In this document: positions 20,894 through 43,784 of the stretch, piece after piece | How the letters are laid out: every line of letters begins with the position of its first letter | How positions within the stretch are numbered: position 1 is the stretch's first letter | Source of the DNA: a virus | Virus genome (UHGV): UHGV-0368429 | Length of the DNA stretch: 47,797 nucleotides | Reading direction: 5' to 3' (one strand) | Notes under the pieces: generated by a model | Databases searched by the model: none | Told to the model about the DNA's origin: nothing | What the model saw: the letters and a program-made list of their open reading frames with translations, nothing else | Position numbers and translations under genes: made by a program

Positions 20894-22213
20894 ATGCTTT
20901 ATAACACTGGAACCATTGCTGTCAACGGAAATACCGCCACAGGGACGGGTACTAACTGGACGGCACCTGCCAGCCAGGTCCGCGCTGGCCAGACGATTAT
21001 CGTCATGTCGAGCCCGGTTCAAATTTTCCAGATCTCAAGCGTGGACAGTTCCACCTCGATGACGGTTACACCTGCCGCCGCTCCGGCACTTAGCGGTCAG
21101 AAGTATGGAATCCTGGTGTCCGACAATATCTCTGTCGACGGACTGGCACAGGCCATGTCGCAGCTCATCAAAGAGTATGACGAGAATATTGGCGCGTGGG
21201 AGACGTTCGCCACAACCTTAGCCAATCAGAGCATTACCGTAACCATTAACGGCACCCCTGTAACGATCCCCGGCATCGGCAAACTGGCGCAAAAAGGGAG
21301 TAACGGTGCGCTGGCTGTTGCTGACGGCGGCACTGGGGCCACGAAGGCAGAGGACGCTCGCACAAACATCGGTTTGGGAGACAGCGCCACCAAGAGTGTT
21401 GGGACGGTAACTGGTACCGTAGCTGCCGGCGATGATTCTCGCATCACTGGTGCCCTTCAAAAAACTGGCGGGAAACTTACAGGACAACTGGATTTGGTAA
21501 GTGCACCGCTTGTGGCAGACGGTAACTCGGTTATTGTTGCAAATGGTGGTCTTGATGTTGATTTAGCAAAAGGACTAGCGTTAAGAGGAAGAGTGCAGCA
21601 GGGGGCGGGCAAAAACAATAATATACTTGTGGTATCTGGAGATGGTGATACAGGCGCGACGGGATATGTAGGTGCATTCCAGTATAACTGGTATACCGAT
21701 GGCTGGATTACAGGGATTACCCGTGGTTCAGGAACTAACACGCTGACGTATTCGATTTACTATAACGGTGCATCTTATGGTACAGGGGATAAACGATGGA
21801 GCTTCAATTATGATGGTTCCGCCACTTCTCAGGGGGCCTGGGTTAATGGTTCTGACGAGCGTCACAAGTCCAATATAAAGCCGGTGTCGACCCCACTAGC
21901 CGCCGTACTATCCATGCGTGGTGTCACGTATGACGTTCAGGATGGTGGTCGGGGTGTAGGACTTATTGCCCAGGATGTTGAAAATTGGTGTCCGGATGCC
22001 GTTAAGACATATGGAGATCGTGAATTCAGTGATGGCACTGTGATTGAGAATTTCAAATTTCTCGACACATCAGGCGTGTCTGCCGCATACCACACCGAAG
22101 CAATCAAAGAACTTTTTACCCTGGTGGAACTGGTACTTATCGATCCGGAAAAAGCACGTGATGTAATCAACGTGGTTAAAGAAGCCACTAAGCCTAGCCA
22201 GTCAGGTTTGTAA
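20894..22213 (+). CDS. Tail fibre / tailspike with C-terminal intramolecular chaperone (peptidase S74-like) domain
   Basis: 439 aa, Gly/Thr-rich repeats; C-terminal ...WVNGSDERHKSNIKPVS...LSMRGVTYD... fits the S-D-x-R-x-K auto-cleavage motif of S74 chaperone domains. Confidence 0.6.
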   Translation: MLYNTGTIAVNGNTATGTGTNWTAPASQVRAGQTIIVMSSPVQIFQISSVDSSTSMTVTPAAAPALSGQKYGILVSDNISVDGLAQAMSQLIKEYDENIGAWETFATTLANQSITVTINGTPVTIPGIGKLAQKGSNGALAVADGGTGATKAEDARTNIGLGDSATKSVGTVTGTVAAGDDSRITGALQKTGGKLTGQLDLVSAPLVADGNSVIVANGGLDVDLAKGLALRGRVQQGAGKNNNILVVSGDGDTGATGYVGAFQYNWYTDGWITGITRGSGTNTLTYSIYYNGASYGTGDKRWSFNYDGSATSQGAWVNGSDERHKSNIKPVSTPLAAVLSMRGVTYDVQDGGRGVGLIAQDVENWCPDAVKTYGDREFSDGTVIENFKFLDTSGVSAAYHTEAIKELFTLVELVLIDPEKARDVINVVKEATKPSQSGL

Positions 22214-22417: not shown

Positions 22418-22433
22418 CTGTATATAAAAACAG
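22418..22433. promoter_or_regulatory. LexA (SOS) box upstream of umuD
   Basis: CTGTATATAAAAACAG = CTGT-N8-ACAG with AT-rich spacer, 18 bp before the umuD ATG; identical in form to the E. coli umuDC operator. Confidence 0.85.
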
Positions 22434-22450: not shown

Positions 22451-22870
22451 ATGGAATTTATCAGGCCTGCAGAACTGCGAGAAATTATAGCTCTCCCGCT
22501 TTTCAGTGACTTAGTGCAGTGTGGTTTCCCAAGCCCAGCGGCTGATTACGTTGAACAGCGCATCGATCTCAATGAGTTACTTGTTGCTCACCCGAGCTCA
22601 ACGTATTTCGTCAAAGCCGCGGGCGATTCTATGATCGAAGCCGGGATCAGCGACGGTGATCTGCTGGTAGTGGACAGCTCCAGGACTGCTGAGCATGGTG
22701 ACATTGTCATCGCTGCGGTGGAAGGGGAGTTCACTGTTAAACGCCTGCAGCTGCGCCCGAACGTGCAACTAAACCCTATGAACAGCGCCTACAGTCCGAT
22801 AGTTATTGGCTGCGAAGATACGCTGGACGTTTTCGGCGTCGTGACTTTCATCGTTAAATCGGCGAGCTGA
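22451..22870 (+). CDS. umuD: UmuD-like error-prone polymerase accessory subunit (S24 peptidase)
   Basis: [45 protein letters not shown]...KAAGDSM... closely matches E. coli UmuD as recalled. Confidence 0.9.
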
Positions 22871-22872
22871 AC

Positions 22873-24141
22873 ATGTTCGCGCTCTGTGATGTGAATTCGT
22901 TCTACGCATCATGCGAGACGGTGTTTCGGCCTGATTTGAGGGGGCGCCCGGTTGTCGTTCTCTCGAATAATGATGGCTGCGTAATTGCGCGCAGCGCCGA
23001 GGCCAAAGCCGCCGGAATTACCATGGGTGAGCCTTTCTTCAAGCAAAAGGAGCTTTTCCGGCGCGCTGGCGTTGTTTGCTTCAGCAGCAATTACGAGCTG
23101 TACGCTGATATGTCGAACCGGGTAATGACGACGCTGGAAGAAATGAGCCCTCGCGTCGAAATATATAGCATCGATGAAGCTTTTTGCGACCTTACTGGTG
23201 TTCGAAACTGCCGGGACCTGACAGAGTTTGGCAAAGAGATCCGCGCGACGGTTCTGAAGCGTACGCACCTGACTGTCGGGATTGGCATCGCGAAAAGTAA
23301 GACCCTTGCAAAGCTGGCAAATCACGCCGCCAAAAAATGGCAGCGTCAGACGGGCGGAGTTGTTGATTTGTCCAATATCGATCGCCAGCGTCGGTTGTTG
23401 GCTATTGTGCCTGTGGAGGACGTATGGGGCGTCGGCAGGCGCATCAGTAAGAAGCTGAACGCCATGGGCATCAAAACGGCTCTGGACCTCTCAGAACAAA
23501 GCACATGGATTATCCGTAAACACTTTAACGTGGTACTCGAGCGAACGGTCCGGGAGTTGCGCGGCGAGCCTTGTCTTGATCTGGAGGAGTTTGCACCAGC
23601 TAAGCAGGAAATCGTCTGCAGTCGGTCATTCGGTGAACGCGTTACCGAATACGAACAGATGCGGCAGGCTATTTGCAGCTATGCGGCGCGTGGTGCTGAA
23701 AAGCTTCGCGGCGAACATCAGTATTGCCGTTTTATCTCTGCGTTCGTGAAGACGTCACCTTTTGCCCTGAACGAGCCGTATTACGGCAACAGCGCGTCAG
23801 TGAAGCTTCTCACCCCCACTCAGGATTCCCGCGACATCATCAACGCCGCGGTAAAGTGCCTGGACAAAATCTGGAAGGATGGGCACCGCTATCAAAAGGC
23901 TGGAATTATGCTGGGAGATTTTTTCAGTCAAGGGGTGGCACAGCTGAACCTTTTCGATGAGCACGCGCCGCGCGCTGGAAGCGATAAGTTGATGGATGTG
24001 CTCGATCACTTGAACGCGAAAGAAGGGAAAGGAACACTCTTCTTTGCCGGGCAGGGCATTCAACAGCAGTGGCAGATGAAGCGGCAGTTGCTTTCACCCC
24101 GATATACTACTCGCATATCAGATTTATTAATTGTGAAGTAA
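22873..24141 (+). CDS. umuC: UmuC-like Y-family translesion DNA polymerase (Pol V catalytic subunit)
   Basis: 422 aa; [41 protein letters not shown]... is the Y-family N-terminus; immediately follows umuD. Confidence 0.9.
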
Positions 24142-24166
24142 AAAGGCTGCTTAACGCAGCCTTTTT
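24141..24166. terminator. Bidirectional rho-independent terminator (umuC and convergent small ORF)
   Basis: AAAA-GGCTGC-TTAAC-GCAGCC-TTTTT; A-run on one side, T-run on the other. Confidence 0.7.
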
Positions 24167-24172
24167 AGTTAA

Positions 24173-24322
24173 TTAAGCAGCTTTTTTCTCGCTGCATTTG
24201 CAATGAGGGATAACAAAAACTTTCGCCTTTTTAGGGCGGATGATTTTACCATCCTTCATTACATAGGGCGTGAAGGTTACTTCACACGAATTCCCACATT
24301 TTGGACAATAGCCAGTTTTCAT
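24173..24322 (-). CDS. Unlisted small ORF (49 aa): zinc-ribbon-like protein, putatively SOS-regulated
   Basis: Translated by hand (below the 60-aa listing cutoff): MKTGYCPKCGNSCEVTFTPYVMKDGKIIRPKKAKVFVIPHCKCSEKKAA*; CPKC...HCKC; GGAG about 7 nt before ATG; LexA box 28 bp upstream; terminator downstream. Confidence 0.5.
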   Translation of the reverse strand: MKTGYCPKCGNSCEVTFTPYVMKDGKIIRPKKAKVFVIPHCKCSEKKAA

Positions 24323-24349
24323 GTGAGATCTCCTATGTAAATGTACAGC

Positions 24350-24365
24350 CTGTAAATCTAAACAG
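24350..24365. promoter_or_regulatory. LexA (SOS) box upstream of the small zinc-ribbon ORF
   Basis: CTGTAAATCTAAACAG = CTGT-N8-ACAG with AT-rich spacer. Confidence 0.65.
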
Positions 24366-24476
24366 ATTGCACCTTGTTAGGAGAACCACTATACTTTTAG
24401 CCGTCAAGCATTTTGTGTAGCGGTAGATTTCTCCATACACACCGAGTTATGCGTCAACATAGCTCGCCCCCTAAGA

Positions 24477-24500
24477 AGCCCTGCGTCAACAGGGCTTTTT
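24477..24500. terminator. Hairpin terminator just past the ImmA-like gene
   Basis: GCCCTG-CGTCAA-CAGGGC followed by TTTTTT on the plus strand, preceded by A-rich sequence. Confidence 0.5.
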
Positions 24501-24983
24501 TCAATAAAATTCAAAGCAAAGCTGTGCTGTTTGATAGCCCAATTTATCGAGCATCGTTTCTGCGAAAAGATCCGCCTGCCATTCAGAATCTTCATTTTGT
24601 TCCGGCATGGCATTCGCAAAGTGTAAGGCTGGCTTATGTTGTAGTAGCAAGTGCCCGAGCTCATGGAATATAACAAATAACGCTGATCGTTCACCGCCAC
24701 ATGCCATTTCATAGATATGGTTTGGAACCCTGATAGTCAGTTTGTCAGGTTCACAGTGTCCAATCGTTAGACCCAGCGTTTCCTGAAACCATTCGTCATC
24801 ATCCATTGGATCGAGGACAATATTCCATTGAGATAATGTTTCCAGCGCTACGTCAAATCTGCGCGGTCTACGCCGGTATTTATACTTACTAGTAAATCCG
24901 AGTGCAAAGCAAGCATTTACAGCTATCGCTTTAATTTCCATTTCACTCAGAGGACGAACACGTGTACCGCGCATTAAATGCAT
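24501..24983 (-). CDS. ImmA/IrrE-family zinc metallopeptidase (COG2856-like)
   Basis: 160 aa with HEXXH motif (FHELGHLLLQH); immediately downstream of an XRE HTH gene in the same orientation; AT-rich. Confidence 0.7.
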   Translation of the reverse strand: MHLMRGTRVRPLSEMEIKAIAVNACFALGFTSKYKYRRRPRRFDVALETLSQWNIVLDPMDDDEWFQETLGLTIGHCEPDKLTIRVPNHIYEMACGGERSALFVIFHELGHLLLQHKPALHFANAMPEQNEDSEWQADLFAETMLDKLGYQTAQLCFEFY

Positions 24984-25000
24984 AACAGTTTCCTAAGCAG

Positions 25001-25360
25001 TTATTTTTTGTTGATTTCTGCAAGTAATTCTGCAAATTTTTTTAATTCTTCATGGGTGAATTCCGATTTTGCAAAACCAGCAACAAGCATTTGTTGTTGC
25101 TTTGGTAAACCTTCAATAGGTACCAATTCATTCGCGATAGAAGCTAAAACATCGAGATCATCAATGTAATAACCTTGCGCTGCAAAAAGTTCATTGATTG
25201 CCGTTACCCATTTCTCTGGTATTTTTTTAGTCCCTGTTTCGAGCCCGCTTAGAAAAGCAGGTGTTGTTCCTAAAGCCTTTGCCATTGTAAGCAAAGTATA
25301 ACCAGTATCGATCCGAGCTTTCCTTACGGCCTTTCCGAAATCAGTAAGAGCCATAGTCAT
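25001..25360 (-). CDS. XRE-family helix-turn-helix transcriptional regulator
   Basis: 119 aa; N-terminal HTH (…FGKAVRKARIDTGYTLLTMAKALGTTPAFLSGLETG…); paired with the ImmA-like gene. Confidence 0.7.
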   Translation of the reverse strand: MTMALTDFGKAVRKARIDTGYTLLTMAKALGTTPAFLSGLETGTKKIPEKWVTAINELFAAQGYYIDDLDVLASIANELVPIEGLPKQQQMLVAGFAKSEFTHEELKKFAELLAEINKK

Positions 25361-25459
25361 ATCCTCAGTGCTTTCATTGTGGCTTACGCCAGATGTTCTA
25401 AATATACTCTAACCATAAAAAAAGTAAACTCATCAAGAAAAATAAATTAACCAAAAAGG

Positions 25460-26131
25460 TTAAGTTATTATTTCTATTAGATTTTTACCTTGATTTCTGG
25501 CGTTTCCAACCGCGCGTGTAACAGCGTGCCAGATAAACTTGTCGGCAGGCACTGCGCCGTCGGCTGCTATCTCTTCAGCTTCTTTCCCGCCTATATCCTG
25601 ACGTATCCACTCGCGAGCCGCTTCCGGTGACAGAACCAGTGGCCGGCGATCGTGAATATCGACCAGACCTTTATCAGCTGCAGATGTCACGATGAGAAAA
25701 CCTTCAGCTTCGTCTCCACGCTCAAATGGTGTGCTGCCGATAGCCGCCATAAATATTGGCTGGCCGTCGGCCCGGTGAATGAAGTAGGGCTGTTTCTTGT
25801 CTGCTTCCTTCTTCCATTCGAACCAGCCATCCGCAAAGCAGATCGCCCGGCCATGTTGCCAGAGAGGCTTGAACATTCGGCTGGTGGCCGCCGTCTCGAC
25901 GCGTGCGTTAATCAGTGGCGGTTTATCCCACCACTCGGGCGCGTAAGACCACAGGACTGGATCAAGATGCAGCTGCTCGTTGCGTTCGCTCAGGAGCAGC
26001 ACCTTGGTACCGGGCGAGACGTTGTACCGGCCTATAGGTTCCGGGTCATACGCAATGTCACGATCGGCTTCATCGGCCAAGTATGCCAGATATTCTTCAC
26101 GGGTTTGGGCTTGTGCAAAACGTCCACACAC
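25460..26131 (-). CDS. yedK: SOS-response-associated peptidase (SRAP; YedK/HMCES family abasic-site processing protein)
   Basis: 223 aa starting MCGRFAQAQTREEYLAYLADEADRDIAYDPEPIGRYNVSPGTKVLLLSERNEQLHLDPVLWSYAPEWWDKPPLINARVETAATSRMFKP..., matching E. coli YedK with the catalytic Cys2. Confidence 0.85.
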   Translation of the reverse strand: MCGRFAQAQTREEYLAYLADEADRDIAYDPEPIGRYNVSPGTKVLLLSERNEQLHLDPVLWSYAPEWWDKPPLINARVETAATSRMFKPLWQHGRAICFADGWFEWKKEADKKQPYFIHRADGQPIFMAAIGSTPFERGDEAEGFLIVTSAADKGLVDIHDRRPLVLSPEAAREWIRQDIGGKEAEEIAADGAVPADKFIWHAVTRAVGNARNQGKNLIEIIT

Positions 26132-26311
26132 AGGAACCTCCAGTCAGTAAGACTGAAAGTATAGGGCAGGGAGAAAAAGTAGTGTGCGCTGGTTAAGTCC
26201 TACAAACGGATTCGCGCTGATTATGCTAATGAGGATGAAATGCGTAAAGCGATGCGTTGTGAAACTGGAAGGAGCTACGCAAAGTTGCGACAATGCCAAA
26301 AGAGAAAGCTA

Positions 26312-26335
26312 AACCCGGTAGGGGATCCGGGTTCG
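26312..26335 (-). terminator. Hairpin terminator downstream of dinI
   Basis: Inverted repeat AACCCGG-TAGGGGAT-CCGGGTT; T-containing tract follows on the minus strand. Confidence 0.4.
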
Positions 26336-26356
26336 CTGTGATGACAATATGGAAAT

Positions 26357-26596
26357 TCATTCATTAGTAAGCCACATATCAGACTCTTCAAACATATCCT
26401 CCAGCATACGGTTCAACTTTTCACGGTCACTTTTGCTGGCATCACTATTCAATCCGTTAGCCTGCATAGGTTTCACCTTCACTTCAGCATCAGGGAATAT
26501 GCTATGCACTCGCCTCGTCAGCTCAGCCAAAATAATTTCTCTGGCGCCATCCAAGCCCTGGACATTTCGCTTATCGTAAACCAACTCAACAAACAT
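26357..26596 (-). CDS. dinI: DinI-family DNA-damage-inducible protein
   Basis: 79 aa; ...GAREIILAELTRRVHSIFPDAEVKV...EESDMWLTNE follows the E. coli DinI pattern; LexA box 42 bp upstream. Confidence 0.8.
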   Translation of the reverse strand: MFVELVYDKRNVQGLDGAREIILAELTRRVHSIFPDAEVKVKPMQANGLNSDASKSDREKLNRMLEDMFEESDMWLTNE

Positions 26597-26637
26597 AACA
26601 GTCTCCTTAATCTCTGTGAGAGGAAGCTATATTTTTA

Positions 26638-26653
26638 CTGTAAATATATACAG
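26638..26653. promoter_or_regulatory. LexA (SOS) box upstream of dinI
   Basis: CTGTAAATATATACAG = CTGT-N8-ACAG. Confidence 0.8.
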
Positions 26654-26767
26654 TGTCAAGCGAGTGATACGATCTACACGATGGGATTTTTCGTCCGGTT
26701 GAACAGAAATTACCGGTAGTTATTCCCCAGTTATTCCCCAATATTTCCCCGTAAGAAAACTACCAAT

Positions 26768-26797
26768 AAAAAAACCAGCCATAAGAGGCTGGTTTTC
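26768..26797 (-). terminator. Rho-independent terminator adjacent to attP (would follow the reconstituted tRNA in a lysogen; tI/sib-like position)
   Basis: AACCAGCC-ATAAGA-GGCTGGTT flanked by an A-run (plus) and T-run (minus); 10 bp from the CCA end of the tRNA fragment. Confidence 0.6.
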
Positions 26798-26807
26798 AAT
26801 GTATTTT

Positions 26808-26853
26808 TGGTCGGCACGAGAGGATTTGAACCTCCGACCCCCGACACCCCATG
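26808..26853 (-). other. attP core: 3'-terminal 46 nt of a tRNA-Pro-like gene (partial tRNA, not intact)
   Basis: Reverse complement CATGGGGTGTCGGGGGTCGGAGGTTCAAATCCTCTCGTGCCGACCA has T-arm, acceptor 3' strand and CCA and matches the 3' part of E. coli proL as recalled; the 5' half is absent; int is adjacent. Confidence 0.65.
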
Positions 26854-26904
26854 TCACTGCGTTAAAGCCGCTGCAACCCTTGTAAATACTGGTGCTACGG
26901 CATG

Positions 26905-26940
26905 TTTGACTGTATATGCAAACAGTGCATTTTTTGCAAA
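26905..26940 (-). promoter_or_regulatory. LexA-box-containing promoter-like element between int and attP, oriented toward attP
   Basis: CTGTATATGCAAACAG (26910..26925); on the minus strand TTGCAA-17-TATACA flanks and overlaps it. Confidence 0.4.
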
Positions 26941-26989
26941 ATCCGCACTATATACATCAATGAGTTACGGGTAGGTTTTTCCCCATACA

Positions 26990-28183
26990 TCACCCGGCTT
27001 TAAAGACAATTTCAGCATGAGGAACTTCTACCCATTCCACATGGTTCTGGGTATAAACTTTTGTCGATTTTGCATCACTATGGGCCATCCTTGCCTGCGG
27101 ATCGATACCTTGTCTTTCGAAAATATGAGCCGCCAGCGCTCTAATCTCGTGGAAAGTTGGCCTTTCTTTGATAGGTAATTCTGCCGCTACACCTATCCGG
27201 TCCCGCAGCTCTGAAAATGCCCTGCTCAAATAATCAGGGGCCACCTGTGTTGGGTGGTTAACTTCCTTGCTTATCGGATTGCTTCTCTTTTCCAGAAGCC
27301 GGTGAATAACATAAGGACTGGCCACATTGTCTCTGCTGTTGTCGATGATCTCTTTCAGGGCCCTGCCGATCGGAATAGCGACGTGTGAAGCCTCTTTGTG
27401 CTGCACTTTTTGCCGATGAATGTAAAGCGTTCCGAATATGCCAGCCTCCTCCTGATCGAACCATACACAGCCGCAAACCCCTTCTTGAGGTTCCTTGATC
27501 GAGTACCGGATCCGGGAAACTTCCAGGCGCGCTTGCGTAGTTTGTATGGCAAGGTCCATTGCAGTCTTCAGCCAAGGTTCAGCAGCTGCATGTATGGCCA
27601 GGAACTGTTCCAAAGTAAGTCGCCGGCGGACCTTTTTATCGACACGCCGCATTTTTTTCCGTGTTGCAGGGTTATCCATCATTAGCGATTCATCAACAGC
27701 ATAAGAGAATAGCTTTTTCAGGAAGCTAACTTTTCGGTTCTGAACATTGGCCGACGATTCAGAATGGTAATTTCGTATGTAGGCATTTACGTGCTCAAGC
27801 TCAATATCGCATGCGGGTATGTTATTAAAAAATTCTTTAACCCTGATGGCATCATTATTCCAATCGTCAAGTGTGCTTTTAGACGGCTGCTCATCTTTGA
27901 TTGCTCTCTCCATAATGCGATCAACATGTTCAGAAAACGGGTGGGCTTCACCATTCAGCCCTCCCGATTCCCGAATTAATGAATCTATCGATGGTGTATT
28001 TTCAGGGCGCATCCTCAGGTTATATTCTCGGGCGATGGCGATAGCCATTACTCGATCCGAACCGAGAGTTTTCTTTTTCCCAGTTATAAGCGTGAACTTA
28101 TACACGCCACGATCTTTATCAAAAAAAAGATAATCAGGAAGGTGGCGGTATTCTTTTTTTCGTGGCCTTGCTGCCATGGTCAA
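26990..28183 (-). CDS. int: Tyrosine integrase
   Basis: 397 aa next to attP on the same strand; lambda-type position; C-terminal region typical of tyrosine recombinases. Confidence 0.85.
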   Translation of the reverse strand: MTMAARPRKKEYRHLPDYLFFDKDRGVYKFTLITGKKKTLGSDRVMAIAIAREYNLRMRPENTPSIDSLIRESGGLNGEAHPFSEHVDRIMERAIKDEQPSKSTLDDWNNDAIRVKEFFNNIPACDIELEHVNAYIRNYHSESSANVQNRKVSFLKKLFSYAVDESLMMDNPATRKKMRRVDKKVRRRLTLEQFLAIHAAAEPWLKTAMDLAIQTTQARLEVSRIRYSIKEPQEGVCGCVWFDQEEAGIFGTLYIHRQKVQHKEASHVAIPIGRALKEIIDNSRDNVASPYVIHRLLEKRSNPISKEVNHPTQVAPDYLSRAFSELRDRIGVAAELPIKERPTFHEIRALAAHIFERQGIDPQARMAHSDAKSTKVYTQNHVEWVEVPHAEIVFKAG

Positions 28184-42731: not shown

Positions 42732-43784
42732 ATGAAAAATACTGTAAATATAAACAGTGTTGAGCTTGTCAACGCTGACTGCCTGCAATACCTCGCAACC
42801 CTCCCAGATAACACCATCGACCTTATTGTTACGGATCCGCCTTATTTTAAGGTGAAGCCGAACGGCTGGGATAATCAGTGGAATGGTGACGCCGACTATC
42901 TTCGCTGGCTTGATATGTGTCTTGCCCAGTTCTGGCGAGTGCTTAAGCCTGCCGGCAGCCTGTATTTGTTTTCAGGTCACCGACTTGCATCCCATATTGA
43001 GATCATGATGCGTGAACGCTTCAACGTCATGAACCACATTATCTGGGCGAAGCCATCAGGGCGCTGGAACGGGTGTAATAAAGAAAGCCTGCGCTCTTAC
43101 TTTCCCGCGACGGAACGCATCCTTTTCGCTGAGCATTATCAGGGGCCATATAAGCCGAAAAGCGACGGATTTGCTGAGAAAAGCAACGAGGTCAAACAGC
43201 ACGTCATGGCTCCGTTAATCACCTACTTTCGGGAAGCACGAGCCGAACTGGGGGTCACGTCCAGGCAAATAGCTGACGCCACCGGAAAGAAAAATATGGC
43301 GTCTCACTGGTTCGGTGCCAGTCAGTGGCAACTACCGAACGAGCAGGATTACGAAAAGCTGCAGGAATTGTTCACTCAGATCGCCATTGAGAAGCACCGC
43401 GCCTCTGAACTCAAAGCACCGCATCACCAGCTGGTGGCCACATGGCATTCGTTGAACCGGAAATACCTTGATCTGCTGGAAGAGTACAAATCTCTTCGGC
43501 GGCATTTCTCTGTGACAGTAGCCGTGCCCTATACAGACGTCTGGACACATAAACCCGTCCAGTTCTATCCAGGCAAACACCCGTGCGAAAAGCCCGCTGA
43601 TATGTTGCGGCAAATCATCAACGCCAGCAGCAGGCCCGGCGATGTGGTAGCTGATTTCTTTATGGGCTCGGGATCAACTGTTAAAGCAGCCATTGAACTG
43701 GGCCGCCAGGCTATCGGCGTAGAACTGGAAGAGGAACGTTTCAACCAGACGGTAAGTGAGGTAAGGCAGCTGGCAGGGGAATAA
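42732..43784 (+). CDS. DNA methyltransferase, DPPY class (N6-adenine or N4-cytosine)
   Basis: 350 aa; motif order ...IDLIVTDPPYF... (catalytic) before ...FFMGSGST... (SAM-binding) is beta-class. Confidence 0.8.
   Translation: MKNTVNINSVELVNADCLQYLATLPDNTIDLIVTDPPYFKVKPNGWDNQWNGDADYLRWLDMCLAQFWRVLKPAGSLYLFSGHRLASHIEIMMRERFNVMNHIIWAKPSGRWNGCNKESLRSYFPATERILFAEHYQGPYKPKSDGFAEKSNEVKQHVMAPLITYFREARAELGVTSRQIADATGKKNMASHWFGASQWQLPNEQDYEKLQELFTQIAIEKHRASELKAPHHQLVATWHSLNRKYLDLLEEYKSLRRHFSVTVAVPYTDVWTHKPVQFYPGKHPCEKPADMLRQIINASSRPGDVVADFFMGSGSTVKAAIELGRQAIGVELEEERFNQTVSEVRQLAGE

Follow-up and report, generated by a model that had tools for sequence, protein, structure and literature searches.

The SRAP family was named by Aravind, Anand and Iyer (2013) from UmuC-UmuD gene neighbourhoods, with YoqW of the Bacillus phage SPbeta as type example; the same paper reported that temperate phages have SRAP genes, and connected the DUF955 peptidases (now Peptidase_M78) with operons of SOS polymerases (PMC3765255). 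Later literature also ties SRAP-like proteins to UmuC-like polymerases, and an SRAP has been annotated in a lambda-like Marinobacter phage (PMC8424206). The crosslink chemistry of YedK, the SRAP protein of E. coli, and the roles of its active-site and DNA-binding residues have been described (PMC9436759, PMC6821365), and alanine mutants of W67, W68, R77 and R162 lose single-stranded DNA (ssDNA) binding (PMC6821365). The yedK gene of the E. coli chromosome is 43-fold RpoS-dependent in EDL933 (PMC2907692), and goes up at stationary-phase entry in Sakai (PMC2241611). It is among the genes with an AUGUG start, and its protein abundance is very low, 0.176 ppm (PMC9841429).

Here, an SRAP gene of the virus genome UHGV-0368429 was analysed; the whole stretch of 47,797 nucleotides is called the window hereafter. 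It is a complete genome of a phi80-like temperate phage. Pfam searches revealed a lambda-type terminase, whose large terminase gene starts at base 38, a portal, the major capsid protein E, a tape measure protein and gpJ, and the phage also encodes a CI-like repressor with HTH and S24 domains, CII, a lysozyme and a lambda-type integrase. In the first 22 kb, the head and tail genes align with phi80 over 85% of the length, at 90% identity, and the tail, integrase and early regions are 93–97% identical to the coliphages Flotzy, Eeyore and LLS. On the comparisons reported below, it is quite probable that the gene encodes a functional YedK-type SRAP, and that it is an accessory (“moron”) gene of this phage, equipped with its own sigma-S-type −10 element and providing protection of abasic (AP) sites to the lysogen.

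The gene lies on the minus strand, where a 223-codon open reading frame reads from 26131 down to 25460. It starts with a GTG (26131..26129) followed by TGT (Cys), the two codons spanning 26131..26126, and the opening codons GTG-TGT-GGA-CGT-TTT give the M-C-G-R-F start by which the sequence-only reading had recognised a YedK-type SRAP. There is no in-frame start farther upstream, and an in-frame stop four codons before the GTG excludes a longer N-terminus. A Shine-Dalgarno sequence, GGAGG, read from the sequence and kept in the alignment of related loci, is located 5 nt before the GTG (26137..26141, minus strand). On the RNA, the start is a GUGUGUG with three overlapping GUG codons (26125–26131), most relatives having AUGUGUG, and start-site fidelity matters for an SRAP because Cys must be residue 2. 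The use of GTG instead of the ATG of most relatives may result in low expression.

Comparison of the predicted protein with Pfam SRAP (PF02586) gave E=7.4e-50 and 169.9 bits (cut-off, 27.1 bits) over profile positions 1–213 of 214, and comparison with NCBIfam PRK09951 gave 462 bits (cut-off, 349 bits). Both values are above the curated thresholds, as for a full-length member of the SRAP/YedK family. The PDB entries of YedK (6kcq, 2icu and 6nua) were matched at E~1e-131, and 185 of 221 aligned residues were identical (84%). The family assignment of the sequence-only reading therefore stands, as does its expectation that the catalytic Cys would be retained: the prospective N-terminal nucleophile Cys2 directly follows the initiator Met, and Cys2, Asn75, Glu105, Thr149 and His160 of YedK are the same residues at the same positions in the phage protein. 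The ssDNA-binding residues R4, P40, W67, W68, K70, R77, T80, S84, R85, W106, K113 and R162 are also unchanged, so that all 17 YedK residues of the set tested by mutagenesis, from C2 to R162, are kept. Against five other copies, carried by prophages, the dN/dS ratio was 0.04–0.08, the gene being therefore under purifying selection.

As the phage protein is 84% identical to YedK and has an intact active site, it is expected to act by the same mechanism. Methionine aminopeptidase would remove the initiator Met, and the free alpha-amine and the thiol of Cys2 would then attack the ring-opened aldehyde of an AP site in ssDNA, Glu105 and His160 serving as acid/base catalysts for ring opening and Schiff-base formation. 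The product would be a reversible thiazolidine DNA-protein crosslink, which would protect the AP site against strand cleavage, and keep translesion polymerases away from it, until repair.

Could the gene instead be a neutral passenger, or an assembly artefact in which a piece of host yedK was mis-joined to a phage contig? Some related copies are indeed pseudogenes (L026, L042, L055 and L064), and the copy of Gifsy-2 is truncated. However, besides the low dN/dS of the phage gene, its DNA is only 75–78% identical to the E. coli chromosomal yedK, the best E. coli DNA matches (84–90%) being prophage copies beside umuDC. A public assembly collection lists the identical protein in 73 blocks and, among the places listed, the same prophage context is found in three independent assemblies and a variant of it in a fourth. 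Finally, between 15460 and 26853 (11.4 kb) the window is matched at 100% identity by an integrated copy of the phage (L011). The comparison with chromosomal yedK that the sequence-only reading had called for thus gives no sign of a chimera with host DNA, which is rejected, and selection, repeated context and sequence identities together already contradict the passenger or artefact explanation, which we regard as highly improbable.

The integrated copy also locates the phage attachment site. The attP is at 26807..26858 (minus strand) and corresponds to the 3' part of tRNA-Pro(GGG): the junction of the integrated copy falls within a complete tRNA-Pro(ggg) gene (L011 9248–9324), next to yejM. The phage supplies the 3' 46 nt of this tRNA, plus a terminator hairpin at 26770–26797 found by a terminator scan. 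ARAGORN detected no complete tRNA in the window, and the tRNA-Pro fragment was confirmed only via the integrated copy. The host flank of this copy is approximately 80% identical to E. coli and approximately 90% identical to Enterobacter wuhouensis. This makes it probable that the recorded lysogen is an Enterobacter-like species, and E. coli is rejected as the host, even though the closest relatives of the phage are coliphages. An exact LexA box is present at 26910–26925, in the interval from the integrase stop (26990) to the tRNA-Pro fragment. Neither strand shows an obvious gene downstream of it, and it would remain on the integrase side once the phage has integrated. A variant of the element was seen in an ENA metagenome scaffold (L010), in which int, attP, dinI and SRAP are contiguous inside 900 kb. 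Its umuC is disrupted (a 225-aa fragment) and its tail-fibre/gpJ set is different (33–44% identical), a sign of mosaic exchange around a cargo island that stays constant.

In the window, SRAP sits in an accessory region located between the tail fibre gene (20894–22213) and attP, on the strand opposite to the late genes. On the plus strand, umuD (22451–22870) and umuC (22873–24141) together occupy 22451..24141, preceded by a LexA box at 22418–22433, and were assigned from Pfam Peptidase_S24 and IMS/IMS_C/DUF4113 matches, respectively. On the minus strand, the order is a LexA box and promoter, dinI, a terminator-like hairpin, SRAP, an XRE regulator, an M78 peptidase, LexA boxes and a 49-aa ORF. 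The dinI homologue (26357..26596; Pfam DinI, E=1e-21) has a LexA box at 26638–26653 that overlaps a TTGACA-17-AAAAAT promoter (26631–26659). The XRE-family HTH regulator (25001..25360; Pfam HTH_31/HTH_3, weak CapH match with PADLOC) has its likely start at 25354, which gives 117 aa, the length called in integrated copies of the phage. It is followed by an ImmA/IrrE-type M78 (former DUF955) metallopeptidase (24501..24983; Pfam Peptidase_M78, PHROG metallo-protease, weak CapP match with PADLOC) and by a Cys-rich ORF of 49 aa (24173..24322), with a LexA box at 24350–24365 and a near-box at 24333–24348 just upstream. Beyond attP, the lambda-type tyrosine integrase (26990..28183, minus strand; Pfam Arm-DNA-bind_1 and Phage_integrase) is 99% identical to that of Flotzy.

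Flotzy, Eeyore, LLS and phi80 do not have the SRAP/umuDC block at this position, where only dinI-type genes are found, so that the block is cargo, as had been proposed from the sequence. SRAP has the marks of a moron or lysogenic-conversion gene, being outside the core modules and absent from close phage relatives, with its own Shine-Dalgarno and −10 sequences and a terminator upstream. Its position “next to umuDC”, as first described, needs a correction. The two share an accessory island, but the end of umuC (24141) is 1.3 kb from the SRAP stop, with the 49-aa ORF, the M78 peptidase and the XRE regulator in between. Because they are convergent, and are separated by these three minus-strand genes, SRAP and umuDC do not form an operon.

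Two other genes of the phage have LexA boxes in noteworthy positions. The basic protein encoded by the 49-aa ORF (MKTGYCPKCGNSC...HCKCSEKKAA) contains CxxC and CxC motifs, and found no match in Pfam, PHROGs, PADLOC or NCBIfam. Its tandem LexA boxes, one exact and one with a single mismatch, are placed just before its ribosome site, and the product could be a small protein under tight SOS control. A near-consensus box, TACTGTAAATATAAACAGTG, at 42742–42757 overlaps codons 4–9 of a DNA methylase gene (42732–43784, Pfam N6_N4_Mtase), which suggests SOS control of the phage methyltransferase. PADLOC gave no defence-system match for SRAP, DinI, UmuD, UmuC or the 49-aa ORF, and an Rfam scan of 24000–27100 at E≤1 returned only sub-threshold chance matches.

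The window contains five exact LexA boxes outside the SRAP promoter region, versus 0.57 expected. Between the SRAP start and the dinI stop (26132–26356), in contrast, no CTGT-N8-ACAG sequence was found with at most one mismatch, which places the gene outside the LexA (SOS) regulon as judged from its promoter region, and bears out the earlier observation that no LexA box lies directly upstream. Nor was CTGT-N8-ACAG found within 300 nt upstream of SRAP in any of 80 related loci from different enterobacterial species; the missing box is thus not special to the phage copy.

Inspection of the same interval revealed a CTATACT sequence at 26158..26164 (minus strand), 33 nt before the start codon, predicted to be a sigma-S-type −10 element (TATACT with a C at −13). 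The published sigma-S −10 consensus is CTATACT / KCTAYRCTTAA (PMC5650638). In 79 of 88 related loci, CTATACT occurs at −28 to −36 before the SRAP start, for 0.035 expected from the background frequency. The TATACT positions hardly vary, and 80 of the 84 unique sequences have the C at −13, whereas the 24 nt upstream of the motif share 32% pairwise identity, which is near random. SRAP thus displays the −10 sequence of the RpoS regulon (CTATACT type, C at −13), for which no −35 is needed. The −10 of E. coli yedK is CTATTCT, not CTATACT, and the RpoS data cited above refer to this chromosomal gene. We infer that, in the lysogen, the phage gene would be transcribed from its own sigma-S-type promoter. 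Its regulation would then differ from that of its LexA-boxed neighbours, as the sequence-only reading had suspected, and the conserved CTATACT offers a testable explanation of why a protein called “SOS response-associated” stands outside the LexA regulon. A second, weak promoter-like site (TTTACG-17-CATAAT, 26220..26248, minus strand), found by consensus scan, is conserved in no loci beyond the closest subset.

A possible RNA stem complicates the promoter assignment. The 7-nt sequence TTCAGTC that directly follows the −10 (26151–26157) is complementary to an ACTGGA that overlaps the Shine-Dalgarno sequence, the whole lying within 26132–26157. Over loci L002–L092, 78% of the positions can pair, as compared to 71 +/− 1% with permuted partners. 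Some changes are compensatory: in six sequences an A-T to T-A swap is observed at one stem position (CAG/CTG to CTG/CAG), and the loop length varies. Such a stem makes sense in RNA only if some transcripts start upstream of the −10. Transcripts from the CTATACT −10 would not include the 5' arm, and the stem, if real, acts on read-through RNA, whose translation it may silence.

These observations bear on the possibility that SRAP is, in effect, SOS-regulated, the LexA-controlled dinI promoter (26631–26659) reading through a weak hairpin into SRAP, which would be co-induced with dinI and umuDC. The two genes are on the same strand and 225 nt apart, and several loci, Gifsy-2 among them, also have dinI followed by SRAP. 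The hairpin between them (26311..26334, minus strand; 8-bp stem with 5 GC pairs, T-rich tail) comes from a consensus scan; as a terminator of dinI it is a pattern match only, so that SOS-driven read-through is possible, and the stem with the Shine-Dalgarno sequence implies transcripts starting upstream. Yet most SRAP relatives are devoid of an upstream dinI and of a LexA box within 300 nt while keeping CTATACT, and the stem, if formed, would block the translation of read-through RNA rather than permit it. Co-induction by read-through is therefore an unlikely alternative. With its own ribosome site, its own −10, a terminator-like hairpin separating it from dinI and no LexA box, SRAP would most likely be expressed from the prophage in stationary phase or under general stress, and not as part of the SOS regulon.

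A different kind of control could come from the genes downstream. If SRAP were under the control of the XRE repressor and the M78 protease (ImmA/IrrE, CapH/CapP-like), the pair would constitute a LexA-independent switch activated by DNA damage. The pair is immediately downstream of SRAP on the same strand, has weak CapH/CapP matches with PADLOC, and DUF955/M78 peptidases have been linked to SOS polymerase operons (PMC3765255). However, together with the 49-aa ORF it is found beside SRAP only in L013, out of 80 genome loci, and in the Klebsiella phage ST846-OXA48phi9.2. The trio is 97–100% identical to its counterpart in this phage (100% for the 49-aa ORF), far above the 78% of SRAP and the 81–83% of UmuDC, and for this reason looks like a separately mobile block. 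A 23-nt imperfect inverted repeat (83% complementary) bounds it, at 24152–24174 and 25445–25467, and at its edge SRAP has its last eight codons remodelled. Shared operator-like repeats were searched for in the regions upstream of SRAP and of the XRE gene, and only chance-sized pairs were found. From these comparisons the trio (24173–25360) appears as a later, separately acquired insert into an older SRAP/umuC tail-to-tail pair, not as a dedicated regulator of SRAP, and control of SRAP by the XRE/M78 pair is very unlikely.

If expressed from its own sigma-S-type −10 as proposed, SRAP would give the lysogen extra AP-site protection beside the SOS-controlled Pol V (umuDC) and DinI. It may also be considered that the protein serves the phage, by shielding abasic sites in single-stranded intermediates of phage replication or packaging after damage-triggered induction, or as a damage sensor for the lysis decision. 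Such roles have been proposed for phage SRAPs by Aravind et al. (PMC3765255) and for the Marinobacter lambda-like phage (PMC8424206), and SRAP is encoded in 45 phage records from many hosts, often near the integrase. In the present phage, however, the gene is in the accessory region and opposite to the late genes, its promoter-like element is common to chromosomal copies, and close phage relatives devoid of SRAP are evidently viable. In addition, the biochemistry of the crosslink (PMC9436759, PMC6821365) has taken the place of the “autopeptidase switch” idea. A role for the benefit of the phage seems to us rather improbable, and protection of the lysogen is preferred. A function of SRAP against a glycosylase-based defence was considered and rejected: it has no support in the locus, and host YedK is irrelevant to Brig1 immunity (PMC11078745).

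The association with translesion polymerases put forward in the sequence-only reading is a general one, in line with the neighbourhoods reported in 2013 (PMC3765255). Among 80 enterobacterial genome loci, 36 have umuC within 8 kb of SRAP, and in 33 of these 36 it is convergent and downstream, with overlapping stop codons in six. Gifsy-2 (L008, NC_010393 43494–44027) contains, downstream of its DinI homologue, an unannotated and truncated SRAP frame, 89% identical over residues 1–178; it is the dinI-SRAP pair again, in a decayed copy. In K-12, yedK (L093, 2009821–2012780) lies at a distance of 2 kb from intG, an integrase pseudogene with the annotation “cryptic prophage PR-G”. In the group of loci L004, L018 and L057, an O157-like strain has yedK beside an IS element and the DLP12-type genes ybcM, ybcL and emrE, and two other species have yedE-yedF-SRAP with umuCD after it in convergent orientation. 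It may be that the “chromosomal” yedK is all that is left of one end of an old prophage. Two loci titled Chryseobacterium sp. 18061 (L037) and Streptococcus infantis SY98 (L092) have SRAPs of the enterobacterial type, 88% and 79% identical, the former also with umuDC and dinI; they are probably contaminated or mislabelled assemblies.

A wider proposal, which we put forward only tentatively, is that the enterobacterial YedK-type SRAP is a mobile and self-contained unit, made of the gene and its conserved sigma-S-type promoter, and habitually placed at the attachment end of lambdoid prophages, tail-to-tail with a umuDC under LexA control. The crosslinker, expressed in stationary phase, would decide which abasic sites the Pol V carried along with it may bypass, and act as a brake on phage-borne mutagenesis, and E. 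coli yedK, beside intG, would be a domesticated prophage-end remnant.

The arrangement of SRAP and umuDC in a phage is real, but of an already known and ordinary kind, and its novelty had been overestimated in the sequence-only reading. It is present in GenBank phage records and in the 2013 paper (PMC3765255), and the exact protein is already in public assemblies; protein family, chemistry, umuDC link and presence in temperate phages are all published. The additions made here are the conserved sigma-S-type −10, the gene order, in which three genes separate SRAP from umuC, the attachment site in tRNA-Pro and the probable non-E. coli host. The phage is a natural example of one prophage delivering three functions for the tolerance of DNA damage, Pol V, DinI and YedK, under at least two control logics, and can be used for testing whether a bacterial SRAP restrains Pol V at abasic sites. 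Restraint of translesion synthesis at abasic sites has been shown for HMCES in human cells, and we found no bacterial equivalent in the literature.

Among known systems, E. coli YedK (b1931) is of the same length as the phage protein and belongs to the same NCBIfam subfamily, with all catalytic and DNA-binding residues identical, and its gene likewise lacks a LexA box and has a −10-like element approximately 33 nt before the start. The phage gene differs from it by its phage-borne location, its GTG in place of ATG, its CTATACT in place of CTATTCT, a remodelled C-terminal tail and 34 substitutions, mostly at residues outside the set covered by mutagenesis. The closest gene order is that of the Klebsiella phage ST846-OXA48phi9.2 (MK416022), which has the same six genes, all annotated: umuD-umuC and, on the opposite strand, the 49-aa ORF, ImmA/IrrE peptidase, XRE regulator and SRAP, the last being cut by the record end. 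In Escherichia phage PHB10 (MK524177) and the E. coli prophages of 210205630 and D9, SRAP is 89–92% identical, with 90% in PHB10, and is found with umuDC in the same accessory region, at the integrase/attachment end of a lambdoid phage, but the XRE/M78/49-aa insert is missing; the SRAP and umuC stops overlap in D9, and cold-shock genes lie between the two in PHB10. The SRAPs of Bacillus phage SPbeta (SPBc2; YoqW), F116, Erwinia vB_EhrS_49/59 and Stenotrophomonas S1 are also from temperate phages, but are only 25–63% identical and belong to different phage lineages with different neighbours: that of Pseudomonas F116 adjoins its integrase, and the Erwinia one is near a UmuD-like gene and an integrase. 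Human HMCES, finally, is distant in sequence (E=8e-15, partial match) and has a C-terminal extension with a PCNA-binding motif, but it shares the SRAP fold and likewise uses Cys2 to form a thiazolidine crosslink with AP sites in ssDNA.
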